Positions 27,821 through 45,015 of a stretch of DNA of 64,000 nt are shown here, one piece after another. This DNA is from Bryobacterales bacterium. Its GTDB lineage: Bacteria > Acidobacteriota > Terriglobia > Bryobacterales > UBA6623. The translations under genes and the position numbers were made by a program. A model generated the notes under the pieces. The model saw nothing but the letters and a program-made list of their open reading frames with translations. It ran no database searches and was not told the DNA's origin. Where the stretch lies: contig CBDCTD010000002.1 of the NCBI GenBank assembly GCA_965222095.1, positions 332,626 through 396,625 on the forward strand, written 5' to 3'. How positions within the stretch are numbered: position 1 is the first letter of the stretch; every line of letters starts with the position of its first letter.

Positions 27821-29503
27821 TCAGAAAAGCCCTTCGATCGAGCCGTCCGGGTCAACCCGCATGCGCTCGGCGGCCGGGGATTTTGGAAGCCCGGGCATCG
27901 TGAGGATGTCCCCTGCGACAGCCACGATGAAACCCGCACCGGCGGAGGGATAGAGATGTTGCACCTTGAGACGAAATCCGCTGGGCGTGCCTAGCCGTGA
28001 AGCTTTATCGGATAGCGAATACTGCGTTTTGGCGATGCAAACCGGTGTGTCAGCTAAACCAAAGGACTCGAGATCGCCAATTTCCCGCTCGGCTGGCGTC
28101 GTGTAGTCCACACCATCAGCACCATAGATCTCGCGGGCAATGACCTCGATCTTCTGCTTGATCGGAAGGGCAGCGCCATAGAGAGGACGAAAGTCGGCTT
28201 TTCCTGAGTCGAGAAGCGCAACCAGGGCTTCGGCAACTTCCAGGCCGCCCTCGCCGCCTTTCTCCCAGACTTCGCAGACGAGTACAGGTACGTTTTCTGC
28301 AGAGCACCCTTCGCGAACCGCCGACACTTCCTCTTCGGTGTCTTCTAGAAAGCGATTAAGGACGACGATCAACGGGACGCCGAATTTCTTGACGTTCTGG
28401 ATGTGTCGCCGCAGGTTGACCGCACCCCGCTCGACGGCCGCCGGGTCCGCGGCTTTGAGTTGAGACCTCTTCACACCGCCATGCGTTTTGAGTGCCCTCA
28501 CCGTTGCGACAAGAATCGCCGCCTGCGGCTGCAAGCCTGCCATGCGGCACTTGATGTTGAAAAACTTCTCCGCCCCTAGGTCGGACCCGAATCCGGCTTC
28601 GGTCAGCACGATGTCCGTCGTCGCCAGCCCCATTCGCGTCGCCAGCACGGAGTTGCATCCGTGGGCGATGTTGCCGAACGGCCCGCAGTGTACGAACGCC
28701 GGGCCGCCCTCGAGAGTCTGAACGAGGTTCGGCATGAGGGCGTCCTTGAGGAGCAAAGTCATGGCGCCGTGGGCTTTAAGATCGCGCGCGGTAACCGGCG
28801 CGTTGCTAAAGGTCGCCCCGAGAACGATGCGCGCCAGCCGCCCTTCCAAATCCTCCAGTCCTTCCGCCAACGCCATGATGGCCATCACCTCGCTGGCCGG
28901 GGTAATCACAAAACGATCCTCGCGCGAGGGTCCGGATCTCAAGCGTCCCAGCCCGGTTACGGCGTGACGCAAAGCGCGATCATTCATGTCGATCGCTCGC
29001 GGCCAGGTGAGATGGCGGGGATCGATCAATAGCGCGTTGCCGCGGTGCAGATGGTTGTCGAGCATGGCCGACAACAGGTTGTGGGCGCAGGTGATGGCAT
29101 GGAAGTCGCCGGTGAAGTGGAGGTTAATGTCCTCCATCGGTAGCACCTGGGAATAGCCCCCTCCGGCCGCCCCTCCTTTTAGACCGAAAACCGGCCCTAA
29201 GCTGGGCTCCCGAATACAAGCTACGGCGTTGTGTCCCAGTCGGCGGAGCGCTTGCGCGACACCGACGGTCACCGTTGACTTCCCTTCGCCTGCTGAGGTG
29301 GGGTTCATTCCGGTGACGAGTACAAGGCGTCCCCGCGGAGGCCTTTGCTCGAGAGCCGCCAACTTGACCTTCGTCTTGTACTCGCCAAAGAGCACCAAGT
29401 CGTCTTGCTCGAGGCCCAGTTCCGCAGCGACATCGCGAATAGGGCGTAGCTTCGCCCGCTGCGCGATCTCGATATCAGGTGGAATGGCGACTTTTTGCGG
29501 CAC
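27821..29503 (-). CDS. fhs: Formate--tetrahydrofolate ligase
   Basis: TSAGEGKST, REPSLGPVFGLKGGAAGGGY, LHFTGDFHAI, CGPFGNIAHG, TEAGFG, AKTQYSLSD. Confidence 0.97.
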   Translation of the reverse strand: MPQKVAIPPDIEIAQRAKLRPIRDVAAELGLEQDDLVLFGEYKTKVKLAALEQRPPRGRLVLVTGMNPTSAGEGKSTVTVGVAQALRRLGHNAVACIREPSLGPVFGLKGGAAGGGYSQVLPMEDINLHFTGDFHAITCAHNLLSAMLDNHLHRGNALLIDPRHLTWPRAIDMNDRALRHAVTGLGRLRSGPSREDRFVITPASEVMAIMALAEGLEDLEGRLARIVLGATFSNAPVTARDLKAHGAMTLLLKDALMPNLVQTLEGGPAFVHCGPFGNIAHGCNSVLATRMGLATTDIVLTEAGFGSDLGAEKFFNIKCRMAGLQPQAAILVATVRALKTHGGVKRSQLKAADPAAVERGAVNLRRHIQNVKKFGVPLIVVLNRFLEDTEEEVSAVREGCSAENVPVLVCEVWEKGGEGGLEVAEALVALLDSGKADFRPLYGAALPIKQKIEVIAREIYGADGVDYTTPAEREIGDLESFGLADTPVCIAKTQYSLSDKASRLGTPSGFRLKVQHLYPSAGAGFIVAVAGDILTMPGLPKSPAAERMRVDPDGSIEGLF

Positions 29504-29553
29504 GCTGAGTGGTTCCTTGGTGATCGCTAGGCCGGCTGTCGGGGGAAAAGTCG

Positions 29554-30756
29554 CTAGGAGAACAAAAGGTACGGATTCTCCAATAGGCTCTTCAGTGTCT
29601 TGAGGAAATCAGCCGCGACTGCACCATCTACGGCGCGGTGATCGACATTGACCGTCACCTGCATCGTCGGTCGAAGCGCGATCTGGTCATTCGCTTTTAC
29701 CGCCCTGTCCGTAACCGTTCCGACGGATAGGATGCCGATCTCCGGCGGGTTCACAATCGCCGTAAATTGTTCGACACCGAACATTCCCAAGTTCGAGATC
29801 GTGAACGTGCCGCCTTTGATCTCGTCCGATCGGAGGCGGCCGCTTCGCGCGCGCGAGAGTAGGTCCTGCATTTCAACGTGGACGTCAGTGAGCTTTTTGC
29901 GACCCACATCGCGGACGACCGGCACGATGAGTCCATCTTCCAGCGCCACCGCGATCCCCAGATGAATCGCGGAGTATTGATGGATCTCCTCATCCACGAA
30001 GTGGGCATTGAGGCGGGGGTGCTTTTCAAGAGCCGCGGCGGTCACTTTCGCCAGCACTGGCGTCATCTTGAGTGGCGCGCCGGTTTCGGACCCGACTTGG
30101 GAGCTGAGACGTTCGACCAACCGCTGTAGCTCCCCTACATCCACTGAGAGGGAAAGTGAGATGTGCGGCGCGGCCTGGGCGCTCTGCTGCATGCGCTCCG
30201 CGATGATTCTGCGTTTGCCCTTCAGCGGTATGATTTCGTATTCCTGTTCCGCAACGGACGGAGCTGCTGCCGCTCCTCGATGCTGTGCCACATCGGCGGC
30301 GAGCACGGCCCCATCGGGACCCGAGCCGCGCACACTCGCCAGTGAGACTCCCGCTTCCACGGCGAGCCGGCGCGCCTTGGGCGAGGCCAGTGGCAGTTTT
30401 CCGACGGTAGGCTGTGCGGCTTGTGACGGCGCTTGCGCGGCTCCGTCCGCCGAGACAGAGCTTTCGGCGGCGGGGGCCGCAACGGTTTCAGCCACAGCTC
30501 CCTCGGGGGCGCTTTCGCCTTCCGCGAGCAGTACCGCCACTACCTGTCCAACGGGGATCTCGTCGCCCTCCTTGGCGCTGACGTTCGCCAGGGTTCCCGA
30601 TCCCGGAGCTTCAAACTCGAAGACCGTCTTGTCGGTTTCGATCTCCATCACGGGCTCGCCCTGTTTTACGAACTCTCCCTCGGCCTTGAGCCAGCGCACG
30701 AGAATGCCGCTGTCTTGGGCCATTTCGACCGCGGGCATGACGATTTCAACTGCCAC
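29554..30756 (-). CDS. Dihydrolipoamide acyltransferase E2 (AcoC/PdhC-like)
   Basis: One lipoyl domain (ETDKT), E1/E3-binding ASPKARRLA, TFTISNLG, catalytic DHRAVDG. Confidence 0.92.
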   Translation of the reverse strand: MAVEIVMPAVEMAQDSGILVRWLKAEGEFVKQGEPVMEIETDKTVFEFEAPGSGTLANVSAKEGDEIPVGQVVAVLLAEGESAPEGAVAETVAAPAAESSVSADGAAQAPSQAAQPTVGKLPLASPKARRLAVEAGVSLASVRGSGPDGAVLAADVAQHRGAAAAPSVAEQEYEIIPLKGKRRIIAERMQQSAQAAPHISLSLSVDVGELQRLVERLSSQVGSETGAPLKMTPVLAKVTAAALEKHPRLNAHFVDEEIHQYSAIHLGIAVALEDGLIVPVVRDVGRKKLTDVHVEMQDLLSRARSGRLRSDEIKGGTFTISNLGMFGVEQFTAIVNPPEIGILSVGTVTDRAVKANDQIALRPTMQVTVNVDHRAVDGAVAADFLKTLKSLLENPYLLFS

Positions 30757-30765
30757 GAATCCTCC

Positions 30766-31767
30766 TTAGCGCCCGAGCATTTCTCGGGCAACGCCGACAA
30801 CGCCCTCAGTATTCGGAATTGTCTGGTCTTCCAAAGTGGGAGCGAAAGGAACAGGTACATCCATCGCTGCGATGCGCCGAACGGGGGCGTCAAGATGATA
30901 AAACGCCTTCTCGGCGATGACGGATCCCAGCTCGGCCGTTGCGCCGAACCGCCGGTAACCTTCGTCGAGGACGATGCAGCGGGACGTCTTCTTGGCCGAC
31001 GCCACGAGCGTTTCTTCGTCCAGCGGCGTCAGGGTTCGGGGGTCAATCACCTCCGCCTCGATCCCGTCCTCTGCCAGCTTGTCAGCCGCTTCGAGCGCAA
31101 CGTGAACCATGCTGGAAGTAGCGACGATTGTGAGGTCTTGTCCTTCTCTTTTCGTGTCCGCGACGCCAAAAGGAATCGCGTATTCCTCGCTGGGATCCGG
31201 GACGGCCCCTTTCTGCTGGTACATCATCTTGTCCTCAAAGAACACGACAGGGTTGTTGTCGCGGATGGCCGTTTTCAGTAAGCCCTTTGCGTCGTAGGGC
31301 GTTGAAGGCAATGCGACCTTGAGACCGGGTATGTGCGAAACCCAGGCTTGCAGACTCTGCGAATGCTGCGCGGCGGCGCGCCGTCCGGCCCCCATCGTTG
31401 TGCGAACGACGAGCGGAACGGTGAATTTCCCCCCGGACATGTAGTGGATCTTGGCCGCCTGGTTGACGAGCTGATCCATCGACAACGTCATGAAATCCCC
31501 GAACATGATTTCGACAATCGGGCGGATGCCTGTCAGGGCGCCGCCGACGGCGAGGCCGGTGAATCCGGCTTCTGAAATCGGGGTATCGATGACGCGCGCC
31601 GGCCCGAATTCGTCCAGGATTCCCTGTGTGACCTTGAGGACCCCGCCGGGCGCTGCGACGTCCTCGCCCAAGAGGACCACGGTTTCATCCCGGCGCATTT
31701 CCTCGCGGATGGCCTCATTGATGGCCTCCGAGATGGTGATCTGCCTACCGTTAGTCGGCGTAGACAT
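30766..31767 (-). CDS. TPP-dependent dehydrogenase E1 beta (AcoB-like)
   Basis: LGEDV, DTPISEAGF, EIMFGDF, AAQHSQS, PGLKV. Confidence 0.93.
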   Translation of the reverse strand: MSTPTNGRQITISEAINEAIREEMRRDETVVLLGEDVAAPGGVLKVTQGILDEFGPARVIDTPISEAGFTGLAVGGALTGIRPIVEIMFGDFMTLSMDQLVNQAAKIHYMSGGKFTVPLVVRTTMGAGRRAAAQHSQSLQAWVSHIPGLKVALPSTPYDAKGLLKTAIRDNNPVVFFEDKMMYQQKGAVPDPSEEYAIPFGVADTKREGQDLTIVATSSMVHVALEAADKLAEDGIEAEVIDPRTLTPLDEETLVASAKKTSRCIVLDEGYRRFGATAELGSVIAEKAFYHLDAPVRRIAAMDVPVPFAPTLEDQTIPNTEGVVGVAREMLGR

Positions 31768-32743
31768 GTCGTGTGACCTCCTCGGCTTCCGGAAACGGAG
31801 CCTGCTTCGCGTATTTGACGGCCGCTTCCACCTCCGCGGCCACCTCTTTCCCGATGGATTCTAGGTCAGCTTCGCTCGCGTGTCCGGCGCTGCTGATTTT
31901 GCCGGCAAGGCGATCGATGGGATCACGTTGTTCGCGCCATTCCCGCTCTTCCTCTCGCGTGCGATAGGCGCGCTGGATGTCGCTCATGCCGTGTCCGCCA
32001 TGGCGGTAGGTCTCCAAGACGAGGAAACTCGGGCCCTGGCCGGCGCGCCCCCGATCGACAGCTTCCAGAGCCGCTTCACGGACGGCGAGGACGTCCATCC
32101 CATCTACCGTTGATGACGCAATGTCGAATGCTTTGCCGCGCTCTATGATGTTCCCCGCGGTTACATTTTGCATGGGCGTGTACTCGCCGTATTGGTTGTT
32201 TTCGCAGGCGTAGATGACCGGTAGCTTCCATATGGAGGCCATGTTCAGGGATTCGAGCAGCACTCCTTGATTCGCTGCTCCGTCACCGAAGAAACAAACC
32301 GCCACCTGGTCCGTCTTTCGGACCTTGGCGCTGAAAGCGGCCCCGGTAGCGATCGGTATGCTGCCCCCGACGATGGCGTTGGCGCCCAGGTTGCCCATTT
32401 CCTGATTGGCAATGTGCATCGAGCCGCCCTTGCCCCGGCAGTAGCCGGCCTCTTTGCCGAACAGCTCGGCGAACATGCGGCCCATGTCGGCGCCTTTGGC
32501 CAAGCAGTGTCCGTGACCACGGTGCGTGCTGGTGATGTAATCGTCCGCCCGAAGAGCCGAGCAGACGCCCACGGCAACCGCCTCTTGCCCGATGGAGACG
32601 TGTGCAATGCCGATGATCACCGTGCCGCGATAGAGTTCCTGGACCTTGCCTTCAAAGGTGCGAATGGTGACCATTCGGGTGTAAAGGTCCAGGAGTTGGT
32701 CCTTCGTTACGTCTTTGTCGATTACTGCGGAAGTGTTTGTCAT
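31751..32743 (-). CDS. TPP-dependent dehydrogenase E1 alpha (AcoA-like)
   Basis: GQEA, STHRGHGH, GKGGSMH, TPP motif GDGA...ENN. Confidence 0.93.
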   Translation of the reverse strand: MTNTSAVIDKDVTKDQLLDLYTRMVTIRTFEGKVQELYRGTVIIGIAHVSIGQEAVAVGVCSALRADDYITSTHRGHGHCLAKGADMGRMFAELFGKEAGYCRGKGGSMHIANQEMGNLGANAIVGGSIPIATGAAFSAKVRKTDQVAVCFFGDGAANQGVLLESLNMASIWKLPVIYACENNQYGEYTPMQNVTAGNIIERGKAFDIASSTVDGMDVLAVREAALEAVDRGRAGQGPSFLVLETYRHGGHGMSDIQRAYRTREEEREWREQRDPIDRLAGKISSAGHASEADLESIGKEVAAEVEAAVKYAKQAPFPEAEEVTRHVYAD

Positions 32744-32957: not shown

Positions 32958-33233
32958 TCACTCCTTGCCGGCTATGCCGCTCCATTGTCGCTCAAGTTCG
33001 CTTACCAGCGCGTCCAGAACTTCCTCGGTACTTCCCGGCCTTTCCTGCTTAGCGCTCCACTGCCACTGGTTGAGGTAGTCATCCGTCCCCGCCAGCCCTT
33101 CTTCCATTGCCACGCGGTCGATCTCTTCCTGGAAGTAAGAGGGCAGCGGTCGCGACACCGGCCTGCGGCCGTGTTCGGATACTTTCACCTGGGCCGGGAT
33201 GTCTTTCCAGTAAAGAACCTGGTAGATCGCCAT
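32958..33233 (-). CDS. Small 'virulence factor' (CvfA/B-like) domain protein associated with methyl-transfer clusters
   Basis: YWKDIPAQV...FQEEIDRVAM...DDYLNQW pattern, recalled from family knowledge; ATG 33233. Confidence 0.75.
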   Translation of the reverse strand: MAIYQVLYWKDIPAQVKVSEHGRRPVSRPLPSYFQEEIDRVAMEEGLAGTDDYLNQWQWSAKQERPGSTEEVLDALVSELERQWSGIAGKE

Positions 33234-33249
33234 CGCCAAGAGATTCCTT

Positions 33250-34302
33250 TCAATTTGCTTTAGCCGGTTGCAGCTCTCCTTTTCGATAGGCGCGGAGGAA
33301 TTTCTTGCAAAAGCGATCACGGCCCAGCAGCATGTCCTCGGCCAGCTTGTAGCGCGCCGTGGTTTTGTCGATCGAGAAGACTTCGTTCATCTTGCCCGTA
33401 ACGGGGTCGACGATGCCACTGTCGGCGCCGGCATCCACCGCCAAGTTGGCGAAGGCGTCATTGATCAACCGGCGGCTCGGCAGTCCGAACGATACGTTAC
33501 TGAATCCTCCGGTGATGTGAATCTCGGGACCGCACTTCTGTCGCAGCTCGCGGACGGCGTCGAAATAATGATTGCAAAATTCACCGTCGACCGATATTGG
33601 GAACACGAGCCCGTCGACGTAGATCTTGCTCAATGGGATGCCCTTTTCGACGGCGGCGTCGACCATGCGGGAGGCGTTTGTCACGCGCTGCTCATCGTTC
33701 TGCGGCATGCCCGACTCGCCGGCCGCCGTAGCGATGACGGGATGGCCACCTGCCTGGGCCAAGTCCAGCGCCTCGACTCGTTCGAGAGACGCCGAGTTCA
33801 ACATCGGGGTTCCGGCTTGAGACCGGCAGGCCGCCAGACCGGCTTCGATGATCTCGATGTTGGACGAATCCACCGACACTGGGACCGGTGCGAGCGGCTC
33901 CACGAATTCTACCAACCAACGAATGGCCGCCTTTTGGTCGTCAAGCGATATGGAAATTTCGTCGACGTTGAGGTCTAAGAAATCCGCGCCCGCATCAACT
34001 TGGCGCTGGACGATGGTGGCGATGTATTCCCGCCCTTCGCCGGCAGCAGGCTCCTCGCCTGACATAGCAGCCTGCACGGCGATCTTGACGTGCTTGACGC
34101 GGCCCTCGTCGTAGTCTTGGGTTTTCTTCGCCTTTTCGGGGATGATCAGAAAGCGCGTTTCCCCGTCACGCGCAACGTAGCGAACCGCCTCGTTGCCCGC
34201 GGGGTCGGTCGTTACTCGTTTGCCCTTGCGAAGCACAATCCGCGTGCAGTGAGTATTTTCTCCGATGACCATGAACTCTCGATCCAGTCCGGCGACTTTC
34301 AT
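33250..34302 (-). CDS. Methyltetrahydrofolate:corrinoid methyltransferase (AcsE/MetH pterin-binding fold)
   Basis: IGEN, GADFLDLNVD, SVDSSN, LNSAS, DGLVFPI, GFSNVSFGLP, GIVDP. Confidence 0.85.
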   Translation of the reverse strand: MKVAGLDREFMVIGENTHCTRIVLRKGKRVTTDPAGNEAVRYVARDGETRFLIIPEKAKKTQDYDEGRVKHVKIAVQAAMSGEEPAAGEGREYIATIVQRQVDAGADFLDLNVDEISISLDDQKAAIRWLVEFVEPLAPVPVSVDSSNIEIIEAGLAACRSQAGTPMLNSASLERVEALDLAQAGGHPVIATAAGESGMPQNDEQRVTNASRMVDAAVEKGIPLSKIYVDGLVFPISVDGEFCNHYFDAVRELRQKCGPEIHITGGFSNVSFGLPSRRLINDAFANLAVDAGADSGIVDPVTGKMNEVFSIDKTTARYKLAEDMLLGRDRFCKKFLRAYRKGELQPAKAN

Positions 34303-35924
34303 TCCGAGTTGTCCTCGTTTCGGCTCACTTTGGCGTGATGATCACGCTCCAGGAAGGTATTGGCCCAGGCGCTGGTTCCCTTGAGGGCGCCATCTCGAAA
34401 CACGACGGGCCGGCCGATGAGCTTATCTTCTTCGCCGTAGCCCTTCAATCGATCATAGGCACGCGACCATATGCAGTCCTTCTCGCCGACTTCGCATTTG
34501 CCTCCCGGCCGCGTTCCTCCGCACGGCCCGTTGCGCTGGTTTTTGACGCACTGTGACTCCGGGCAGAGGAAAGCGATCTCGGGGAGGGCGCAGTCGCCGC
34601 AGTCCTTGCAGTCAAAAGCTGCGATCTTGAGCGCTTGTTCGGCGCCGTGCATGGCTGCCCGCACGCCATGGCCTGCACGCTCCACCCTTTCGTAGATAGC
34701 TCGGCCTGCACGGAATCCTAGGGTCCCTTTCTCGAACACCTTGTCGTGCGCGAGGCGATTGAATCTGTAGGCGATCGGCGCCTTCCGTCGGGCGGCCCGC
34801 AGGCCCTCGGGCGTTTTCGACTGTGCGTAGCGGCGATTAACCTCGGTTGAGCTGAGGCCCGTCTCGGGATCCCGCTCGAAGTGGTAGAACTCGTCGGGCT
34901 GATGGAACAGAATTTCGCGAGCAAACTGTTTCCAGTCATCCTCCGCGAAGCCAGCCGCCAGGCTGAGGATTTTTTCGTAGTCCTTGTATCGCAGGTGCCC
35001 TCCCAGGTACACGCCGCGAAAACCCAACCCGCGTGCCACCGCGCACTGCTTGGCGGCCAGTTCCAGGAAAAACGCCTTGCCGCGGTCGGGGGAAGCGGCT
35101 TGCTTTTCCGCGATACGAAACAGCTCATCGGGCAGTACAACTCCGGGGATATTCCCTCCGTGAAAGAACCGAGCCGCGGGCACGCTGAGCACATAGACGT
35201 TCGCTAGCACCGGGGCGTTCAGTTCGTGCATCCGCATGTACTTGAGCAACTCGTCTTGCTTACGAGAGTCGTAGCCGATCTGGTTGATGATGAACGCCGC
35301 CCCGTTTTCGACCTTCTTCGCCAGTTTGAAATACTGCGGCATGACTTCCCGCTCGGCCTGCTTGTAATTGTTGACGACGGCCCCGAGGAAGAAATTGGTC
35401 TGTTCGAGAGGTTTCTCCGGCCGCGCGTCCCCGTTCGAGAGCCGGACACCGGCGTTCATGTCGGAGTACATGCGAAGAAGTCCGATCGAATCGATATCGA
35501 ATACGCCCGCCGCCTGGCCCTGGTAGCTGGGCGTGGGACAGTCGCCGGAAAGCGCCAGGACGTTGTCGAACCCCTCGCTGGCCAGCTTCCAGCCGCGGCT
35601 TTGGAGCGCATTGCGATTCCAGTCTTTGCACGACAGGTGAATGATGACCTCTTGTCCGCGGGAGATAAGATCGGTACCCAAGGTGTCGGCGCTCAACATG
35701 GCGTTGCCGCCGGGGTTGTCCGTGATGCTGAGGGCGTGGACCTGGGGATGCTCGGCAAGCGCTCGGGCAAGAGACAGCACTTTCCTTCCCCGTCGCTCGG
35801 TAATCAGGCCTCGGGAGGTGACCAGCTCCGCGCAGGTGACAAAGGTCTCGCTCTGCTGGAGGAGGCGGCGCAGCGACGGCTTGGTCCAAGCATCCGTTCG
35901 CGGGGTCGTGTGAGCCGTGGCCAA
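34299..35924 (-). CDS. metF: Methylenetetrahydrofolate reductase MetF fused to a C-terminal MetV-like Cys-rich domain
   Basis: SITDNPGG, HLSCKDWN, LALSGD, KKVENGAAFIINQ; C-terminus CKDCGDC...CPESQCVKNQRNGPCGG...CEV...CIW. Confidence 0.88.
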   Translation of the reverse strand: MATAHTTPRTDAWTKPSLRRLLQQSETFVTCAELVTSRGLITERRGRKVLSLARALAEHPQVHALSITDNPGGNAMLSADTLGTDLISRGQEVIIHLSCKDWNRNALQSRGWKLASEGFDNVLALSGDCPTPSYQGQAAGVFDIDSIGLLRMYSDMNAGVRLSNGDARPEKPLEQTNFFLGAVVNNYKQAEREVMPQYFKLAKKVENGAAFIINQIGYDSRKQDELLKYMRMHELNAPVLANVYVLSVPAARFFHGGNIPGVVLPDELFRIAEKQAASPDRGKAFFLELAAKQCAVARGLGFRGVYLGGHLRYKDYEKILSLAAGFAEDDWKQFAREILFHQPDEFYHFERDPETGLSSTEVNRRYAQSKTPEGLRAARRKAPIAYRFNRLAHDKVFEKGTLGFRAGRAIYERVERAGHGVRAAMHGAEQALKIAAFDCKDCGDCALPEIAFLCPESQCVKNQRNGPCGGTRPGGKCEVGEKDCIWSRAYDRLKGYGEEDKLIGRPVVFRDGALKGTSAWANTFLERDHHAKVSRNEDNSE

Positions 35925-35943
35925 GGCTATCTACCGTATCCTT

Positions 35944-37581
35944 TCAAGCAACCGCCGAGAAGTCGAAATCCGCCGGCATGGGTTTGAATTGACAGGCCTC
36001 GACGAAGATCTCAAAGAAATCGGGCGTAGTCTCTAACTCCACATGTTCGATTTGTTGCGCCAGCTTCTCGATCGATTGGCGCTTGGAACGCGATAGCAGC
36101 ATCTCTTTGGCGCCCAGCGCCGCGGCGTTGCCGATCTTGACAATACGGTCCTCCGGCACCGGAGCCAGAAAACCGATCTCGATCGCATTCCTGACGTTGA
36201 CGTAGTTCGCAAAGCCGCCCGCGAGGTAAAGCTTGCTGATGTCCGCGGGCCGAACGCCGTAGTTGCGCATGACGATGAACTGTCCGCAATAGTTCGCCGC
36301 CTTGGCCTGCGCCAGATTGCTGGCGTCGAGACGTGAAAGGGTGATCCCATATTCGGGAACGATGTCGAGTTCCCGTGCCTTGTTCGGGAAGACGCCTTTC
36401 GGGGTCATTTGTTCGCGCCGGCGAAGTTCGGCCAGCAGATCGACGAGGCCCGATCCACACAGCCCGCGCGGCTCGCCGCCCCCAATCGTGCTGTAGTCCG
36501 CACGACCGTTTTTGAGACGAAGGGACTCGATCGCTCCGTCGACACCAGGCATTCCGTACTTGACCAGCCCACCCTCGAAAGCGGGTCCCGCCGGACACGA
36601 TGCCGCCATGAGCTTCCCGGCGTGTCCCAGCACAACCTCGGTATTGGTCCCCACATCGACAACCATGACGACTTCGCGCTGCGATTCGATATCAACCGCC
36701 ACTAAGTCCGCCAGCATGTCCGCTCCCACGTGGCTGGCGATCAGCGGAGCCCCGAATACGACCGCCTTCGGGTGAGACCAGATGCCGAGCCGGTGCGCTC
36801 TCTCTGTGAGCGTAGTCGTCTTGCGTTCGCCGGCCAGGTACTCGTGCTCGATTTGCGACTTGTACGGACGCTGGCCGATCGATTGCACATCCAAATTGAA
36901 GAACAGGTCGCGCATGGTGGAATTTCCCACCACGACAATTTCAAAGATCCGATGACGAGGGAACCCAAGCTCTCGGCACATGGTCTTCAACTGATGATTG
37001 AGCGTGCTAATCACCGACTTATGAAGTTCCCCCTGAAAAGGTCCACCGTCGTAGGAGATGCGGTGCATCACATCGCTGCCGCCAAAGCGCTGGGGGTTCT
37101 CGAAGGAAGCTAAGTAGACGCCCTCCCCCGTTTCGAGGTCGACCAGCTCGGCCACCACGGTGGTCGTGCCGAGGTCGACGGCCAAGCCGTACATCTTGCC
37201 CTGGTAGCGGTCAATCACCTCGCCGTCGTAGCAGACATTGTCGCCTTCGCGAGCCACGATCGGGTCGAGCGTGATGTTCTTCGGCAGCGAAGCGGTGAGA
37301 ATCTTGGGCTGGCTGCGAAGCAGCGAAAACCGGACATCTTCGTCGGGGTTTTCAATCACGGCCTGGCAGGCGAGGCGGTAGTCGCCGCGCAAAAACTCCT
37401 CCGCCTCGCTCGGAGCGCTCAGTGCCTCATGGCCACGATTAACCTCCACGATGCACTCGTGGCAGACGCCGGTGCGCCCGCAAGAGGTGGGCACCTGGAT
37501 GGCCAGCTCGTCGGCATAGTCGAAGATGGTCCTTCCGCCCACAAGAGGGCGCTTTAGACCGTCGTAGGATATCTCTCCCAT
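35944..37581 (-). CDS. ASKHA-domain corrinoid reductive activator (RACE/RamA/AcsV-like) with N-terminal 2Fe-2S domain
   Basis: CGRTGVCHEC...RLACQ, DLGTTT, DVGTNTE, SCPAGPAFEG, GLCGSGL, LAGGF, GNAA. Confidence 0.9.
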   Translation of the reverse strand: MGEISYDGLKRPLVGGRTIFDYADELAIQVPTSCGRTGVCHECIVEVNRGHEALSAPSEAEEFLRGDYRLACQAVIENPDEDVRFSLLRSQPKILTASLPKNITLDPIVAREGDNVCYDGEVIDRYQGKMYGLAVDLGTTTVVAELVDLETGEGVYLASFENPQRFGGSDVMHRISYDGGPFQGELHKSVISTLNHQLKTMCRELGFPRHRIFEIVVVGNSTMRDLFFNLDVQSIGQRPYKSQIEHEYLAGERKTTTLTERAHRLGIWSHPKAVVFGAPLIASHVGADMLADLVAVDIESQREVVMVVDVGTNTEVVLGHAGKLMAASCPAGPAFEGGLVKYGMPGVDGAIESLRLKNGRADYSTIGGGEPRGLCGSGLVDLLAELRRREQMTPKGVFPNKARELDIVPEYGITLSRLDASNLAQAKAANYCGQFIVMRNYGVRPADISKLYLAGGFANYVNVRNAIEIGFLAPVPEDRIVKIGNAAALGAKEMLLSRSKRQSIEKLAQQIEHVELETTPDFFEIFVEACQFKPMPADFDFSAVA

Positions 37582-37705
37582 GGGGAACCGGGTCAGTGCG
37601 CGGAGGCCAACAGGTCTACGTGCCGCTCGCCGGCGAGTTGCCTTGCCGAACTATGCGCGCGCAAGCAAGCGATCGAGTACGCCTCGCGCGAGTTGCAGTC
37701 CGCCC

Positions 37706-37948
37706 CTACGTCGTCTCCCAGGCGCCGCGGTAATCGAGCTTGTCGTCACTTGCGCAGATCAGCAGCTCTCTTGAGCGCGCGGGTTTGCGCTGGTTCCTAC
37801 AGCCGAACTGCGCCGTGCACTGATCGAAGCGGTCCTTATAGGGACAGCGCTTGGCGGAGAACTCCTCGGCGTGCCGCATCATGTCGGTGAACATTTCCGT
37901 GATGCGGTCGAGCCGCTTTTGATACTCCGCTTTGTCGATCTTTTGCAT
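37706..37948 (-). CDS. Hypothetical 80-aa four-Cys protein
   Basis: Packed in the operon 8 nt after the corrinoid gene; CPYKDRFDQCTAQFGCRNQ...C. Confidence 0.75.
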   Translation of the reverse strand: MQKIDKAEYQKRLDRITEMFTDMMRHAEEFSAKRCPYKDRFDQCTAQFGCRNQRKPARSRELLICASDDKLDYRGAWETT

Positions 37949-37956
37949 GGCTCGGG

Positions 37957-38712
37957 TCAGGCTTCGACTTCTTGGGCCATCAGATCTTTGGCGAGTTCTA
38001 CGCAGGCAACAGCATCTTTGCCGTATCCGTCGGCTCCCATATCGTCGGCAAACTCCTGCGTGACGGGCGCGCCTCCCACCATGATCTTCACGTCGTCCCG
38101 GAGGTCTGCGTCGATGAAGGCTTCAATCGTTTTGCCCATGTTCGGCATCGTGGTCGTCAGCAGCGCCGACATGCCCAACAGCGGAGCTTCATGCTCTTCG
38201 ATCGCTTCGATGAATTCGTCCGACGAAGTGTCCACGCCCAGATCGACGACTTCGAATCCCGAGCCTCGCAGCATCATGATGCACAAGTTCTTGCCAATGT
38301 CGTGCAGGTCGCCTTTCACCGTTCCCATGACGACCTTGGCGATCGGTTTGATGCCCGAGGCAGATAGAATCGGTTCGATGTGGGCCATGCCCGCTTTCAT
38401 GGCGCGGGCGCAGGCAAGCACCTCGGGGACAAAGATAAAGTTTTCTCGGAACTTGATGCCCACGATCCCCATAGCCGCGATCAGGCCGTCGTCCATGACT
38501 TCGATTGCTTCGATGCCCTCTTCGAGGGCTTTGACCGTGAGCTTGTCGACAGTTTCGTTTTCGCCCTCGATTAGGGCCGCGCCGATCTCTTGCATACTGG
38601 CCCGAGCTTTGGCGAACGTGTTGACTATGCGCTCGCGCTCGTCGGGCCGCTCAATAAATTCTTCGATTTCGTCTCGGATGAGTTCGTTCGAGATGTCGCT
38701 GATGGATGCCAT
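37957..38712 (-). CDS. Corrinoid (cobalamin-binding) protein, MtbC/MttC/MtaC-like
   Basis: Cap domain (GLIAAMGIVG..F...FVPEV), B12 motif GDLHDIGKN, SALLTTTM, VGGAP. Confidence 0.93.
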   Translation of the reverse strand: MASISDISNELIRDEIEEFIERPDERERIVNTFAKARASMQEIGAALIEGENETVDKLTVKALEEGIEAIEVMDDGLIAAMGIVGIKFRENFIFVPEVLACARAMKAGMAHIEPILSASGIKPIAKVVMGTVKGDLHDIGKNLCIMMLRGSGFEVVDLGVDTSSDEFIEAIEEHEAPLLGMSALLTTTMPNMGKTIEAFIDADLRDDVKIMVGGAPVTQEFADDMGADGYGKDAVACVELAKDLMAQEVEA

Positions 38713-38739
38713 GCTTTCGTTTCGTCCTTAGAAGTTTTC

Positions 38740-39795
38740 TCAGTTTTCCGTCGCGTGTTCGCGATGCCAGTCCTTGACAGCCTTAGGAATCTCTTTTAGG
38801 TTCTCGATCGCAGTCTGCAGTGGAATAGCACACTCAGGAGCGACGAGCTGCACTCCGGCATCGAGATTCTTGTACACTTCCTGGCGAACGTCCTCGGGTT
38901 TCTTGGCGAACAACGTTTCCGGATTGTTGATGTTCCCCACCAAAGAAATGCGATCCTTCATGATTCCCACCGATGTTTGGGGGTTATTCTTCGAATCGTA
39001 GTGGAAGGCCGCCATGCCGGTTCCCGCGATGTAATCCATGCGGTCTTCGGTCTTGCCGCAAATGTGAAGGATCAGCGGCACCGGCAGCCGCTCGGCGAAC
39101 TCGATGTGCAATTCCGTGAGGAATCGATCGTAGTATTCACCGCTAACCAGGTCGCCGGTTGCGTGATCCGGCAGCGTCAAGGCGTCCGCTCCGGCTTCAA
39201 TCTGCGCCAGACCGAATTGGATTGTCGCCTCTTTCATGCGGTCCAGGCAAAGCTTCGTCTTTCCTGGGTCGTCGAGCGACAGCAGTAGGAAGGGTTCCAC
39301 GCCGAAGCAGTGGTAGCCGAGCGACCACGGTCCCATCGTTTTCCCAATAACGGCCACTTCATCCCCGTACTCTTTCTTGAGAATCTTGATTGCCTCGGTG
39401 ACACACTTCGTGTCCTTGTGCGTCAGGAAATCCGGCGGGACCTTGATGTCGTCGGCTGTTTCCCAGATCGGCTCTCGCATTTTCACCGTCGGCCAGTTGT
39501 CCTTCTGCTCCCACTGGATCTTGCACCCGAGCGCTGAAGAATCCTGGATGATCGTGAAAACCGGCATGATGGAATCGAAACCTAACTCCGTATAGCCTGT
39601 GGCGGCCAGGCGGGCCATCAACTCGGGCTCACGGTTTGCGTCCGGGAAGGGAGCGTCTACCAGATCCATGAGCTCGACCGTCGCCACGGAGGTCGGGTTG
39701 CTGACCGGCGTCCGATCGACTGGTTCGCGGCGCAGGGCCGCCAGGACGCGCTCCCGCGGTTTCATCGGCCCAACGGTTTGTGGTGCTGCCATCAC
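38740..39795 (-). CDS. MtaA/CmuA family Zn methyltransferase (UroD fold)
   Basis: RERVLAALRREPVDR, GPWSL, AGAD, Zn ligands HICG ... APEC. Start could also be 39792 or 39765. Confidence 0.88.
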   Translation of the reverse strand: MMAAPQTVGPMKPRERVLAALRREPVDRTPVSNPTSVATVELMDLVDAPFPDANREPELMARLAATGYTELGFDSIMPVFTIIQDSSALGCKIQWEQKDNWPTVKMREPIWETADDIKVPPDFLTHKDTKCVTEAIKILKKEYGDEVAVIGKTMGPWSLGYHCFGVEPFLLLSLDDPGKTKLCLDRMKEATIQFGLAQIEAGADALTLPDHATGDLVSGEYYDRFLTELHIEFAERLPVPLILHICGKTEDRMDYIAGTGMAAFHYDSKNNPQTSVGIMKDRISLVGNINNPETLFAKKPEDVRQEVYKNLDAGVQLVAPECAIPLQTAIENLKEIPKAVKDWHREHATEN

Positions 39796-39985
39796 TTACC
39801 TCCCTCTGTTTCCAGCGAGCACGTTCCGCCGGCAACATCCGTCACTCCTGGCGGTCCTAGTTTCCAAGTATCGGCCGGCAATCCTGCCGGCCAGGCCAAG
39901 GACAAGCTGAGCCTGTCACAACTACCAACCGGGACAAACACGAGTGTTTGCCGCCACCGGCAGTGACCGTCACTTTTGTTCGTCA

Positions 39986-40627
39986 TTATTGCTGCGCGCT
40001 TGGCGCAGCGAGCTGTCCCCGAGAGGCGGCCATTTCCTGTTCCCGCAAGATCACCCTTACGTTTGGCGCTCGGACCAGCAGCAGGCCGACCAGCGCATCA
40101 TGAGACTGCCCGCAGGGGAATTCGACCCGGTCTTGGCCGCCTTCGTCCAATTCGAGCTGAGCGAGCTTGGCCAAACCCGCGGTGACCGCCGACTTGCGCT
40201 TGGCAACTTTGTCGCCTTCCCCGTCTGAACTCATTTCGTAAGAGCCGTTCCCGAGGTTGGTCGCGATCATATTCGCGTCCGCCTTCTTGTCCCGAATGCT
40301 CAGCGGCCTAGGCGCCAACTCGCTTCCGGTAGGCAACTTGCATGCCTCAAGAAAAACACGCTTGCTGGCAAGATGATGCGCCATGCCACACGGGAAGCGC
40401 ACTCTCGCGCCGGAATCTCCCACGAGCTCCATGCCTCCCAATACAGTCATGGCTTGCGCGACGAAGGCGATCCTGTCCTGGGCACCTTCCTTTTGACTGT
40501 AGGTGTGGACCGTCAGCTCTATGCCGGCGTCGCGCTCTTGGCGGTAAAGAGCGATCGAAATGTCATGGAAATGCGGATCCATCGGAAGCAGCTCGATCCG
40601 CTCTCCGATGTCGGTTGTTACGCCCAT
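39986..40627 (-). CDS. Uncharacterised 213-aa protein with two FPCG-x-x-H motifs, first gene of the methyl-transfer operon
   Basis: Globular ORF, co-oriented; RVRFPCGMAH and RVEFPCGQSH. Confidence 0.8.
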   Translation of the reverse strand: MGVTTDIGERIELLPMDPHFHDISIALYRQERDAGIELTVHTYSQKEGAQDRIAFVAQAMTVLGGMELVGDSGARVRFPCGMAHHLASKRVFLEACKLPTGSELAPRPLSIRDKKADANMIATNLGNGSYEMSSDGEGDKVAKRKSAVTAGLAKLAQLELDEGGQDRVEFPCGQSHDALVGLLLVRAPNVRVILREQEMAASRGQLAAPSAQQ

Positions 40628-40791
40628 AGGCTCGATCCTTTGTCAAAGGCCATCTGCCAAAGCAAGGGAGACGGCGGCACTCGAATGCGCGCGGCTGGTC
40701 CCGACGCCGGGTACCGGTCCCGTATCCGTCCTCGCCGGATTTTCGAAACCGCCCGTCAGGCAAGTCAATCTAGTTGACTGGCTATCCAGAC

Positions 40792-40884
40792 TTGACAGCC
40801 GCCCCAGTGCCACTTTAGCATAATATATGTCTGGTTGTCTGACAACCTGACTATTAGAATAGCGTCTGACGTATAGTTTGTAAA
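40792..40884. promoter_or_regulatory. Overlapping divergent sigma70-type promoters sharing a FadR/GntR-type operator GGTTGTCTGACAACC (40833-40847)
   Basis: Plus strand: TTGACA 40792, N18, TAGCAT 40816. Minus strand: TTTACA 40884, N17, TATTCT 40861. A 15-bp palindrome lies just downstream of both -10 boxes. Confidence 0.7.
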
Positions 40885-40917
40885 GTCCACTTTTTCAATC
40901 ACCTGGCAAGAGGACTA

Positions 40918-41673
40918 GTGATCGAAAACCTCAAGCGCGTCTCGCGAGTTTCGGTAAGCGATGAGATCGTCGACCAGCTCATTGACCTCATTTCCCGTGG
41001 GGTGCTCAAGCCGGGCCAGCGGATGCCTTCGGAGAAGCAGCTTTCCCAGCAGTTTGGCGTTGGTCGAACGTCGGTCCGGGAGGCACTGCGCTCACTTTCG
41101 GCAACCGGAATCGTTGAATCCCGGCCGGGAGAAGGCAGCTTTGTGTCGGAGGACAGTAGCAGGTACCTCGAAAAGACGCTGCAGTGGGGTCTGCTTCTAG
41201 ACCGCAAAGTGCTCGAGGATCTTATCGAGACCCGCCTCATGCTCGAATCGCACACGTCGTTTCTTGCCGCTCAGAAAGCGAGCCGCAAGGACCTCAACGA
41301 GATTTCATCCACGATCGAGCGGATGGAAGAACTGACCGATGATCCCGATCAGTACCTGGAATTTGACCTCCGCTTTCACTTAGCGATCGCCCAGGCGACG
41401 CACAACTCGATCCTTCGCCAGCTACTGAGCATGACGAGAGGCTACCTGCAGGTCTGGATCAAGGAAACGTTGTCGGAAACTCCGGCCAGCGAATCAGGAT
41501 CGCGAGCCAAGCTGTCGATTGCCGAGCATCGGAAGATCTTTCAAGCACTCGAGCAGCGCAAAGCTGACCAAGCGCGTGAAGCGATGACCGAACACATTCT
41601 TTCGAGCAGCGCCGATCTTCGCACCCACGTGGCGGCAAGAGGCGACGCCCCGTCCGCCGCTCGTGCTTCGTGA
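40918..41673 (+). CDS. FadR/GntR family transcriptional regulator
   Basis: wHTH MPSEKQLSQQFGVGRTSVREAL...G+G; FCD domain FDLRFHLAIA...N...EH...H. Confidence 0.93.
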   Translation: MIENLKRVSRVSVSDEIVDQLIDLISRGVLKPGQRMPSEKQLSQQFGVGRTSVREALRSLSATGIVESRPGEGSFVSEDSSRYLEKTLQWGLLLDRKVLEDLIETRLMLESHTSFLAAQKASRKDLNEISSTIERMEELTDDPDQYLEFDLRFHLAIAQATHNSILRQLLSMTRGYLQVWIKETLSETPASESGSRAKLSIAEHRKIFQALEQRKADQAREAMTEHILSSSADLRTHVAARGDAPSAARAS

Positions 41674-41904
41674 CCACTCTGCGGACCCAAACCATGGCGT
41701 CCGAGGTGTCACCCCAGGGCTGTGTCGGTACTCCTACCGACACCTGTTGCCGTGCTGCCGACACGCAACGACCCAGGTCGGGCTGAACGTATCGCTCAAC
41801 AGCCGGCTCCACAACATGCACTATATCCCGTCCGCGTTGGCCGACCGCTTGCTGACGGGCGCGGCGCAGAAACTCCAACTTCATACTGAGCCTTGTTTCC
41901 CCAT

Positions 41905-41944
41905 GAGTCGACATGAGTGTCGACTCGGCAAGCTAAGAGCTTGC
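41905..41944. repeat. Tandem palindromes (REP-like or terminator) between convergent gntR and pyrG
   Basis: GAGTCGAC-atgagt-GTCGACTC and GCAAGCT-aag-AGCTTGC. Confidence 0.45.
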
Positions 41945-42054
41945 GCCACAAACGGCTGTCCCCATTCTTTTCACACAAACTTTCGGGTGCGGCCCCGTTG
42001 TTCGACTGGGTCTCGGATGAATGTTCCTTCTGAACAGTCTACTAGGGCTGGTCG

Positions 42055-43902
<1,848 letters not shown>

Positions 43903-43959
43903 TCAGCGAGCACGTAAGCTAAAGTCTAGCACAGGCTTAAGTCGTATGTTAGAATCAAG

Positions 43960-45015
43960 ATGGCTTTTTCTCAAGTCAGCGGCTTTTGTGCCTTTCTTCG
44001 GTGGAGAGGTGTTGTGGGAGCGAGTGTGTTGTCAGTGTTTTCGGGCCCGAGATTCGTTCGCGGGGTGGCGTTTTCGCTTGTAGCGGCGCTGCCCGCTTTC
44101 GCGGCCGACGCCAAGATTGCCCTCAAGAACCGCCCTCCTGAATCCTCCCGGCCTGAACTCCCGACGCGAGCATCGACCATCAAGGTTGACGTACCGCTGG
44201 TCCTCATCAACGTGACGGTAACTGACCCGATGGGGCGGTTTGTCACGGGGCTCGAAAAAGGACACTTCAAGGTACTCGAGAACAAAGCTACCCAGGAGAT
44301 CACCCAGTTCGGAGCCGAGGACGTGCCCCTATCACTGGGCATTGTTTTCGACGCCAGCGGCAGCATGGGTCACAAGATGAGCAAGGCTCGTGAAGCCGTG
44401 GCACAGTTCATGAAGACGTCCAACCCCGAGGATGAGTTCTTTCTGGTGCAATTCAACGACCGTCCTAAGCTGATGATCGGCTTCACGAACAGCCTGGAAG
44501 AAGTTCAGAATCGTCTCACGTTCACACGACCAAAGGGGCGCACCGCACTGCTCGACGCGGTCTACCTGGCAATCAGCAAGATGAAAGAAGGCGTGAACGG
44601 GGGAAAAGCGTTGTTGATCATCTCCGACGGCGGCGACAACAGCAGCCGTTATACGGACCGCGAAATCAAGCGTTTGGTCAAAGAAGCCGATGTTCAGATA
44701 TACGCCATCGGCATCTTTGAGCCAATGTCGAGCCGCGGACGGACGCCCGAAGAGCTGGCCGGCCCGGGCCTTCTGAGCCACATCGCCGAGCAGACCGGAG
44801 GCCGCCAATTTCCTGTCGAAAACATCAACGAACTGCCCGACGTCGCGGCCAAGATCGGCATCGAACTGAGGAACCAGTATGTTCTGGGTTACGTCCCTAG
44901 TAATCAGGAGAAAGACGGTAAATGGCGGCGCGTGAAGGTCGTTACGAAAAAGATCCGCGGCATGCCGCCGCTCCGCGCGCACTACCGCCTGGGATACTAC
45001 GCCCCGACCCGTTAG
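43960..45015 (+). CDS. VWA-domain protein (acidobacterial VWFA-related type)
   Basis: KVDVPLV..NVTV, MIDAS DASGSM, TALLDA, ISDGGDNSS, LRNQYVLGY; start uncertain. Confidence 0.88.
   Translation: MAFSQVSGFCAFLRWRGVVGASVLSVFSGPRFVRGVAFSLVAALPAFAADAKIALKNRPPESSRPELPTRASTIKVDVPLVLINVTVTDPMGRFVTGLEKGHFKVLENKATQEITQFGAEDVPLSLGIVFDASGSMGHKMSKAREAVAQFMKTSNPEDEFFLVQFNDRPKLMIGFTNSLEEVQNRLTFTRPKGRTALLDAVYLAISKMKEGVNGGKALLIISDGGDNSSRYTDREIKRLVKEADVQIYAIGIFEPMSSRGRTPEELAGPGLLSHIAEQTGGRQFPVENINELPDVAAKIGIELRNQYVLGYVPSNQEKDGKWRRVKVVTKKIRGMPPLRAHYRLGYYAPTR

Follow-up and report, generated by a model that had tools for sequence, protein, structure and literature searches.

Corrinoid-dependent methyl transfer is well mapped in methanogens, in acetogens and in a few chloromethane-degrading methylotrophs. 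The bacterial systems compared here that pass methyl groups to tetrahydrofolate (THF) are catabolic: in the Cmu and Cdm systems and in the O-demethylases, a substrate methyltransferase (MT1) of the UroD superfamily works with a corrinoid carrier and a second, THF-methylating methyltransferase (MT2) (PMC13222342), and of the corrinoid MT1 systems Cmu alone has been described from aerobes (PMC13222342). The type 1 mlp clusters of Kountz and Balskus, for which a role in methyl-sulfur or methyl-selenide metabolism was proposed, are found in obligate anaerobes only and encode two or three Mlps (at least Mlp2 and Mlp3) and no THF methyltransferase (PMC10418091). Here we analyze a 64-kb stretch (the window) of contig CBDCTD010000002.1 from a Bryobacterales bacterium, in which the gene for an MtaA-like zinc methyltransferase follows that for an uncharacterized 213-residue protein, hyp213, in a cluster of corrinoid and folate genes. 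Tentatively, we read hyp213 and the MtaA-like protein as a substrate-facing methyltransferase that may serve a small soft methyl compound (S- or Se-methyl, sulfonium or methyl halide) and feed both folate and methionine. By analogy, the module would work like a three-component corrinoid methyltransferase system, and in layout it most resembles Cmu. No paper on the module was found in the literature searched (Poribacteria, sponge symbionts, Acidobacteria, 'Versatilivorator', and CmuA homologues in Acidobacteria).

The MtaA-like protein, its zinc site and its pocket

The two genes at issue are as follows.

38740..39795, minus strand: MtaA/CmuA-family zinc methyltransferase (Pfam, NCBIfam, PDB match and zinc ligands)
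39986..40627, minus strand: hyp213, an uncharacterized 213-aa protein, directly upstream of the MtaA-like gene

The MtaA-like open reading frame (ORF) has 351 codons and begins GTG-ATG; because a GGGAGG Shine-Dalgarno sequence stands 6 nt ahead of the ATG at 39792 and the closest database relatives are 350 aa long, the product is probably a 350-aa protein that starts at this ATG. Its sole Pfam family match is URO-D (1.6e-63), as would be the case if the gene encoded a true uroporphyrinogen decarboxylase (HemE) that had been misread as a methyltransferase. We rejected this candidate as almost certainly wrong, since the protein scores 65 bits on the hemE equivalog (cut-off 303), and since in a PDB search the one strong match is 4AY7, the MtaA of Methanosarcina mazei (E 1.4e-48, 169 bits), vs 41 bits for the best true UroD; the zinc ligands are present, and the locus context is always a corrinoid system. 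The NCBIfam models TIGR01463 mtaA_cmuA (239.2 bits, cut-off 235.4) and PRK06252 (259.4, cut-off 244) are both matched above their cut-offs, while the scores on the MtaA_Meth (236 vs 400) and MtbA (209 vs 600) equivalogs are below theirs. The 120 best database relatives, out of thousands, are 80-98% identical to the protein; their only names are 'MtaA/CmuA family', 'mtaA' or 'mtsA', and there is no fused MtaA-corrinoid homologue among them (all are 341-362 aa long). An exact look-up of the MtaA-like protein of the window found no record.

In a HMMER alignment to 4AY7, the motifs HICG (residues 244-247) and APEC (319-322) pair with HiCG and aPgCG of MtaA, and D267 pairs with the glutamate in 'svEek', the position of the MtaA carboxylate ligand; H244, C246, D267 and C322 are invariant in all 121 family sequences over which conservation was scored. 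The alignment thus predicts an intact His-Cys-Cys(+Asp) zinc site, and on its sequence the protein is a bona fide zinc enzyme of the soluble coenzyme M methyltransferase (SCMT) type, in the MtaA/CmuA family, a placement made by hidden Markov model cut-offs and PDB scores. The first-pass annotation had pointed to the H-x-C (HICG) and distal APEC ligands and to an MtaA-type rather than a UroD grouping, and both statements are borne out. Its remark that the cluster has no MttB-, MtaB- or MtvB-type MT1 holds more widely, i.e. for the whole window: Pfam scans, which took in all sizeable ORFs, found no MttB, MtaB or MtvB-type MT1 and no PF02574, and in the other sizeable ORFs just housekeeping genes. 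It has been argued that within the UroD superfamily a His-Cys-Cys zinc sphere marks the S/Se-methyltransferases, the O-demethylases having lost the cysteines (PMC10418091), and we infer that the MtaA-like enzyme moves methyl groups between a cobamide and a soft heteroatom.

The SCMTs of methanogens (MtaA, MtbA, MtsA and MtpA) resemble the protein in fold family, in length, in the H-x-C...carboxylate...C site, and in having a separate corrinoid protein of the MtaC/MtgC type encoded beside it. The MtaA-like protein is 31.7% identical to M. mazei MtaA over 328 residues, about what the methanogen coenzyme M methyltransferases share with one another (PMC10418091). Unlike the SCMTs, the module is bacterial and belongs to oxygen-exposed uncultured phyla, its enzyme falls below the MtaA and MtbA equivalog cut-offs, an Arg and a Gln of the pocket are replaced by Met and Trp, and in place of an MtaB, MtbB or MttB partner and a methanogenesis context there are THF enzymes and an obligate hyp213.

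The pocket positions were taken from a 2026 study that used an AlphaFold 3 (AF3) model of M. barkeri MtaA (T28, Q29, R70, L75, Q94 and A201; PMC13618148). All six letters match the 4AY7 sequence at an offset of 9, and the corresponding residues of the MtaA-like protein, in a mapping that is indicative only, are T35, S36, M77, I82, W101 and P209, each of them invariant in the family. Three changes stand out, R70 to M77, Q29 to S36 and Q94 to W101, by which the only cationic residue of the pocket is gone (it is Ser or Ala in a divergent Chloroflexota type described below) and a Trp is gained. With the AF3-based definition making them indicative only, these changes argue against coenzyme M as a substrate and, more weakly, against carboxylate-bearing thiols bound in the same way; the pocket would, by the same indication, fit a small, less polar substrate. 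By its equivalog score, its partners and, as an indication, its pocket, the protein is not MtaA proper.

hyp213 and the conserved module

A scan of one genome per species gave 569 stretches that encode a relative of the MtaA-like protein, and synteny was counted in the best 80, ranked by similarity to the MtaA-like query; counts of loci below refer to these 80. The hyp213 gene lies directly upstream of the MtaA-like gene in every one of them. The protein has no Pfam or NCBIfam family match, and every named homologue is labelled 'hypothetical'. Its two halves are homologous, i.e. there has been an internal duplication (hhalign probability 96%, E 1.3e-9), and each half carries an F-P-C-G-x-x-H motif. 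Structure prediction from the single sequence gave a pLDDT of 41, and AlphaFold2 with a 62-sequence alignment a pLDDT of 87 and a pTM of 0.84; the AlphaFold2 model has two beta-beta-beta-alpha-beta-beta-alpha repeats, then a long helix, then a disordered tail that is invariant in sequence at G204, L206, P209, S210 and Q212. A Foldseek search of the model against the PDB gave a best match of only E 0.25 and TM 0.2. The family is small, with just 277 representative clusters, nearly all of about 210 aa, in a profile search of 1.84 billion representative proteins, which found no convincing hyp213 fusions; two apparent fusions to MtaA (P0295 and P0323) are read as frameshifted or chimeric ORFs.

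C80, H84, C172 and H176 of hyp213 were weighed as a possible catalytic metal site, a candidate that we discarded because the four residues are lost together in P0173, P0356 and P0373. Because the Cys/His pairs are lost together in some members, and because C96, otherwise 'invariant', is Val, Ile or Leu in the divergent subfamily, the site is more likely structural and dispensable than catalytic. The first-pass annotation had treated the MtaA-like enzyme as a lone unit and had overlooked hyp213; since hyp213 accompanies the MtaA-like gene in 80 of 80 loci and in a deeply divergent subfamily, the unit comprises two genes, whose products would form a complex.

This subfamily was met in marine and sponge Chloroflexota/Dehalococcoidia metagenome-assembled genomes (MAGs), hosts that we read from the records as 'SAR202-like', with hyp213 relatives at about 29% identity. 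The divergent hyp213 is directly followed by a URO-D gene in every locus reaching that far except L095, from a sponge MAG, where a DUF4268 gene stands between the two; the URO-D protein is 65% identical to that of the window and has the same zinc ligands. The operon is tight, with genes for Pterin_bind, PF13769, PF02574, hyp213, MtaA-like, corrinoid, 4-Cys and RACo proteins and a 2-hydroxyacid dehydrogenase, PF02574 being present in the operons that extend upstream (L084, L086, L090 and L093-L095); the genomes are compact, and the operons are without regulator or methylenetetrahydrofolate reductase (MTHFR). Because the same parts stand together in so divergent a subfamily, we take their association to be ancient, and by domain content the wider module holds all catalytic parts of a split MetH together with RACo and the hyp213/MtaA-like pair. 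In L093 the operon opens with a 261-aa protein without a Pfam family (6972-7757), just before the pterin methyltransferase.

In the window, the cluster genes from hyp213 to the formate-tetrahydrofolate ligase (FTHFS) are all on the minus strand, downstream of a divergent GntR/FCD regulator. The features other than the pair are listed here.

40918..41673, plus strand: divergent GntR/FCD (FadR-subfamily) regulator (Pfam GntR 2.3e-22, FCD 7.1e-27)
40833..40847, no strand assigned: perfect palindrome GGTTGTCAGACAACC, operator-like, between the GntR and hyp213 genes (sequence reading)
37957..38712, minus strand: cognate corrinoid protein with a B12-binding_2 cap and a B12-binding domain, DxHxxG at residues 135-140 (Pfam)
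37706..37948, minus strand: 4-Cys protein, 80 aa, between the corrinoid protein and RACo (conserved, no family match)
35944..37581, minus strand: RACo-type reductive activase with 2Fe-2S, middle and ASKHA domains (Pfam Fer2, Raco_middle, RACo_C_ter)
34299..35924, minus strand: MTHFR fused to a MetV-like C-terminal domain, DUF5981 (Pfam MTHFR, DUF5981)
33250..34302, minus strand: pterin-binding methyl-corrinoid:THF methyltransferase, MtgA/AcsE-like (Pfam Pterin_bind)
32958..33233, minus strand: small PF13769 ('Virulence_fact') protein, after the pterin methyltransferase (Pfam 2.5e-17)
29554..32743, minus strand: pyruvate dehydrogenase (PDH)-type E1 alpha, E1 beta and E2, the last with lipoyl, E3-binding and catalytic domains (Pfam, NCBIfam)
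27821..29503, minus strand: FTHFS, the last gene of the same-strand run (Pfam 4.9e-247, NCBIfam equivalog 833 bits)

Each locus has a single URO-D gene. Around it the corrinoid protein is encoded in 62 loci, RACo in 53, a divergently upstream GntR homologue in 47, the pterin methyltransferase in 43, the MTHFR in 39, the PF13769 protein in 34, the 4-Cys protein in at least 21, and a PF02574 homocysteine S-methyltransferase in 20. The corrinoid protein has the motif DLHDIG and is MtgC-like by NCBIfam, with 1Y80 as its closest solved structure (E 2.6e-60); RACo is AcsV-like at 6e-85 (NCBIfam). The 4-Cys protein, for which Pfam/NCBIfam-type scans gave no family match, occupies the same position across phyla, and its C35, C44, C50 and C65 are invariant, the Chloroflexota-type operons included; some gene callers fuse it to RACo, and in the window it is a separate frame with its own stop. 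The gene at 33250 had been called AcsE-like: it does encode a Pterin_bind protein, but among solved structures MtgA of the glycine-betaine system is nearest to it (4O0Q, 2e-34), and AcsE comes second (1e-27). We read the start of the PF13769 protein as the Met of 'MAIYQ'; the protein always comes after the pterin methyltransferase, in the Chloroflexota operons as in the 34 loci, and 'Virulence_fact' is probably a misnomer for the family in this context.

By record titles, the hosts of the 80 loci are Poribacteria (32), Acidobacteriota (27, i.e. 9 Bryobacterales, 4 Ca. Versatilivorator and relatives, and 14 others), Latescibacterota (16), Opitutales (3), Planctomycetota (1) and Unclassified (1); a Gemmatimonadota member was also met. 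Every one is a MAG, the sources being soils, peat, groundwater and marine sponges, and no isolate was seen. The mean pairwise identity is 0.83 for the MtaA-like protein (a mean inflated by the choice of loci by MtaA-like similarity), 0.79 for the corrinoid protein, 0.71 for MTHFR, 0.70 for RACo, 0.64 for the pterin methyltransferase and 0.57 for hyp213. The MtaA-like protein is thus the most conserved of the module, and the deep split gives the same ranking (65% vs 29% for hyp213). Distances are strongly correlated between the proteins (r 0.80-0.92); therefore the set has been inherited or transferred together.

Sixteen loci, almost all from Poribacteria, hold the hyp213/MtaA-like pair alone, with no corrinoid protein within 10 kb, and one of these adjoins the dcw cell-division cluster and a Rieske/cytochrome b pair. 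In the pair-only Poribacteria locus L081, a 275-aa protein without a Pfam match (11426-12253) lies after the pair and before the Rieske/cytochrome b genes. Accessory genes differ between phyla: PhyH Fe/2-oxoglutarate dioxygenases in Poribacteria and Latescibacterota loci, often between RACo and MTHFR, and, in or beside the operon in several phyla, Ldh_2 proteins, D-2-hydroxyacid dehydrogenases, short-chain dehydrogenases/reductases and an enolase-superfamily dehydratase. The enolase-superfamily gene stands with PhyH between RACo and MTHFR in two Latescibacterota loci (L049, 15335-16438; L070, 12672-13775) and reaches 457 bits on the cis-3-hydroxy-L-proline dehydratase equivalog (cut-off 500), which hints that the carbon skeleton handled beside methyl transfer in Latescibacterota may be a proline-like or hydroxy-amino-acid derivative. 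Across the 80 loci no transporter accompanies the module in a conserved way. In some Poribacteria operons a restriction-modification-like pair (Eco57I/N6_Mtase and an unknown gene) lies between PhyH and MTHFR (L016, 15856-18356; also L006, L010, L037 and L038); we judged such genes to be probably mobile insertions and rejected them as parts of the system.

The E1/E2 genes are near the module in only 5 loci, namely L001-L003, which are the closest Bryobacterales and keep the same order, and L011 and L012, in one other Acidobacteriota genome, where E1/E2 proteins of 34-43% identity are encoded on the opposite strand in the module flanks. L011 and L012 are two module copies about 60 kb apart on contig CBDFLD010000014.1 of a single Acidobacteriota MAG; upstream of both copies an E2 gene runs on the opposite strand, and downstream of L012 there are E1 alpha and E1 beta genes as well. 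FTHFS does not adjoin the module in other lineages among the 80 loci (L001-L003 end inside or just after E2), and the one other match, in L006, is 48% identical and encoded on the opposite strand. E1/E2 and FTHFS are additions specific to certain lineages.

The parallel with CmuA that the first-pass annotation had drawn is apt and extends to CmuB and MetF: the order of an MtaA-like gene and then a corrinoid gene is real, recurring in 62 of the 80 loci, and a pterin methyltransferase and an MTHFR are encoded with them. The Cmu system (CmuA, CmuB, MetF2, FolD and PurU) likewise has an MtaA-like and then a corrinoid domain, a pterin methyltransferase and an MTHFR, and is found in aerobes (architecture in part from PMC13222342). 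Unlike Cmu, the module has its two domains in separate genes and possesses RACo, the 4-Cys protein, PF13769 and hyp213; CmuC is absent, none of CmuC, FolD and PurU being encoded in the window cluster, and the comparison of the two systems is one of architecture. A search for CmuA in a plasmid collection (tblastn, E 1e-8 and 0.05) returned just hemE and distant UroD-family matches.

With the three-component systems of anaerobes (Odm/Vdm/Mtv, Cdm, and Mtg/Mtq) the module shares the logic of MT1, corrinoid protein, MT2 and RACE/RACo, its MT2 and corrinoid protein being most similar to MtgA and MtgC; unlike them, it has as MT1 candidate an SCMT-type enzyme with Cys ligands, neither MtvB/OdmB/CdmB-type nor of the MttB family, and its hosts are not obligate anaerobes. 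From the type 1 mlp clusters it differs in having one Mlp-like enzyme, a THF methyltransferase, an MTHFR and hyp213, in hosts that are not anaerobes. Two further systems compared are MetH, the cobalamin-dependent methionine synthase, and the methylcobalamin-dependent core-MetE. The wider module has every catalytic part of MetH as a separate protein (PF02574, Pterin_bind, and cap plus B12 domain), and the MtaA-type barrel shares the zinc-thiolate chemistry of MetE; a plain MetH it is not: reactivation would be by RACo and not by an S-adenosylmethionine (SAM) domain, the window is without PF02574, and the hyp213/MtaA-like pair has no counterpart in MetH.

Direction of methyl transfer and candidate substrates

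In the reading that we tentatively favor, the MtaA-like protein would be the catalytic zinc subunit of a two-gene unit working on a dedicated corrinoid protein. RACo, perhaps together with the 4-Cys protein, would use ATP to hold the cobamide as Co(I), and the MtaA-like/hyp213 pair would move a methyl group onto Co(I) from a small methylated compound whose leaving atom is soft, the candidate donors being methyl halides, S-methyl compounds of the methanethiol/dimethyl sulfide (DMS) type or Se-methyl compounds, and sulfonium. The MtgA-like enzyme would then hand the methyl group to THF, the MetF/MetV-type MTHFR would oxidize methyl-THF, and in the lineage of the window FTHFS would take the route through to formate; many genomes would, in addition, make methionine from the same methyl-corrinoid with a homocysteine methyltransferase of the MetH type. 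A divergent GntR/FCD repressor would control the operon in Acidobacteriota. Both the direction of transfer and the substrate class are ones that we infer for the MtaA-like enzyme. The first-pass annotation had likewise made it the substrate-facing enzyme; this stands in so far as it is the sole recognizable candidate in a THF-linked corrinoid module, but the unit is two genes, and, because a homocysteine-binding methyltransferase of the MetH type is repeatedly encoded along with this corrinoid protein and transfer from thioether to THF is uphill, the enzyme could instead be a thiol methylase on the acceptor side.

A donor-side, catabolic role would be supported by MtgA, the closest solved relative of the MT2, which belongs to a demethylation pathway; by the bacterial precedents compared (Cmu, Cdm, the O-demethylases and Mtg; PMC13222342), all of them catabolic; by the MTHFR in the operon (39 loci) and the GntR/FCD regulator with its conserved putative operator, which look like a catabolic signature; and by the O2-dependent PhyH, the Ldh_2 and 2-hydroxyacid dehydrogenases and the enolase-superfamily dehydratase in or beside the operons. 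Since no transporter is conserved with the module, a small diffusible substrate fits. Several points weigh on the other side. The nearest characterized relatives, MtaA and MtbA (about 32% identity), work on the acceptor side, from methyl-cobamide to thiol, and methyl transfer from pterin to thiol amounts to about -30 kJ/mol (methyl-THF or methyl-tetrahydromethanopterin vs methyl thioethers). Transfer from a thioether or thiol to THF would thus be uphill, and S-methyl donors other than sulfonium compounds would therefore work only, or at least mainly, towards homocysteine. The Chloroflexota operon resembles a split MetH to which parts have been added, and gives a housekeeping more than a catabolic impression; the MtaA-like protein is very highly conserved (0.83 in the mean, 65% across the deep split), which is unusual for a substrate-specific MT1; and there are the 16 loci that hold the pair and no corrinoid protein within 10 kb.

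These points lend themselves to the main alternative, which we consider somewhat less likely and in which methyl groups would run the other way, from methylene-THF to methyl-THF by the MTHFR, on to the corrinoid protein by the pterin methyltransferase, and then through the MtaA-like/hyp213 pair to a thiol or sulfide. The pair would then be a thiol methylase on the acceptor side, a split, RACo-reactivated analogue of MetH, core-MetE or MtaA, with homocysteine (as methionine synthase), HS-/methanethiol or another thiol metabolite as the acceptor. The closest characterized homologues are indeed methylcobamide:thiol methyltransferases, the H-x-C...D...C zinc site is laid out as in MtaA, and the zinc site of MetE has the same layout; the direction is thermodynamically downhill; the MetH parts PF02574, Pterin_bind and B12-binding are repeatedly co-encoded, with RACo replacing the SAM reactivation domain; the Chloroflexota operon is compact and without regulator, the enzyme is conserved at a housekeeping level, and in Poribacteria the pair stands alone beside cell-division genes. 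Yet PF02574, where present, already serves homocysteine, so that a second thiol methylase would need a separate acceptor, and a pocket that has lost its cation and gained a Trp would be ill suited to an anionic or zwitterionic thiol such as coenzyme M, homocysteine or 3-mercaptopropionate. GntR control and O2-dependent catabolic neighbors suit catabolism better, and the literature searched holds no bacterial precedent for an MtaA-type enzyme in this direction.

Within the donor-side reading, one special case is a split chloromethane or methyl-halide dehalogenase, in which the MtaA-like and corrinoid proteins would correspond to CmuA, the pterin methyltransferase to CmuB and the MTHFR to MetF2. 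The CmuA domain order, the operon with pterin methyltransferase, MTHFR and, in the lineage of the window, FTHFS, and the joint mtaA_cmuA subfamily of NCBIfam are all in keeping with it; methyl transfer from a halide to THF is exergonic, no transporter is required for it, the pocket is, compared with that of MtaA, more hydrophobic, and the hosts are oxygen-exposed (a superoxide dismutase gene elsewhere in the window, PhyH in operons, and cytochrome b/Rieske genes by the pair). We nevertheless hold it to be improbable: there is no CmuC homologue, the corrinoid protein retains the DxHxxG histidine, and an association with homocysteine methyltransferase, PhyH and Ldh_2 is foreign to cmu clusters. 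The haloalkane MT1s, as CdmB shows, need no zinc (PMC13222342), which also counts against it. Less credible by far is the earlier suggestion that the thiol partner of the MtaA-like enzyme is the dihydrolipoyl arm of the co-encoded E2. In the window E1 alpha, E1 beta and E2 do stand between the methyltransferase genes and FTHFS, with all of them on one strand, same-strand E1/E2 genes recur in L001-L003, and those of L011 and L012, a second Acidobacteriota lineage, flank the module; but E1/E2 are absent from 75 of the 80 loci, where the MtaA-like protein is still 81-87% identical, as they are from the Chloroflexota-type operons, and with their standard domains the proteins are of the ordinary PDH type. 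Because E1/E2 are lineage-specific (5 of 80 loci), the suggestion is left unsupported; the recurrence of E1/E2 and of 2-hydroxyacid dehydrogenases would be explained more simply by the handling of a carbon skeleton of the 2-oxo or 2-hydroxy acid kind.

A broader claim would be that hyp213 and the MtaA-like protein are a previously unrecognized two-subunit corrinoid methyltransferase that strips methyl groups from a small volatile soft-atom compound into folate and methionine in oxygen-exposed hosts, forming an unaccounted sink in soils, sponges and the ocean and bringing with it two new B12-related protein families; we consider this possible but, as a whole, rather unlikely. Its hosts would be Acidobacteriota, Poribacteria, Latescibacterota, Opitutales, Planctomycetota, Gemmatimonadota and SAR202-like Chloroflexota, mostly uncultured, its candidate substrates methyl halides, methanethiol/DMS and methyl selenides, and the new families of B12 methyl transfer hyp213, with a fold that has no PDB match, and the 4-Cys protein. 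An SCMT-type enzyme with an ATP-dependent activase and a folate link is now seen in at least 7 bacterial phyla that are dominant in soils, in sponge microbiomes and in the dark ocean, and three conserved proteins of the module (hyp213, the 4-Cys protein and PF13769) are of uncharacterized function. If the substrate is a methyl halide or a methylated S or Se compound, the module is a candidate for environmental trace-gas consumption, which the known cmuA, methanethiol-oxidase and DMS-oxygenase genes may not fully explain; if the module is rather a split methionine synthase plus one additional branch, the annotation of B12-dependent methionine synthesis changes in these phyla.

The regulator, its putative operator and other features of the window

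The divergent regulator has LldR, NanR and PdhR as its best NCBIfam matches, each below its own cut-off. The palindrome in the GntR/hyp213 intergenic region is probably its operator: 10 Acidobacteriota loci have the core TTGTCNGACAA exactly once each, in every case between the GntR and hyp213 genes, and we estimate that chance would give about 1-2 matches in all loci together. Promoter-like hexamers on both strands cluster at 40739-40884 in the same intergenic region. An Rfam scan of 27000-44500 for cobalamin, SAM and THF riboswitches gave nothing credible.

Away from the cluster, two 1161-nt copies of an element with an IS630-like DDE_3 transposase (52534-53694 and 60898-62058) are 100% identical and inverted, and the 7.2 kb between them encode an oligogalacturonate-lyase-like protein, an HhH-GPD glycosylase, a VTT-domain protein, a carboxyltransferase and an M43 peptidase; the inverted pair with its 7.2 kb looks like a composite transposon. 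A 346-aa ORF at 6270-7310 on the minus strand has two Maf-like matches and looks like a tandem Maf-Maf fusion.

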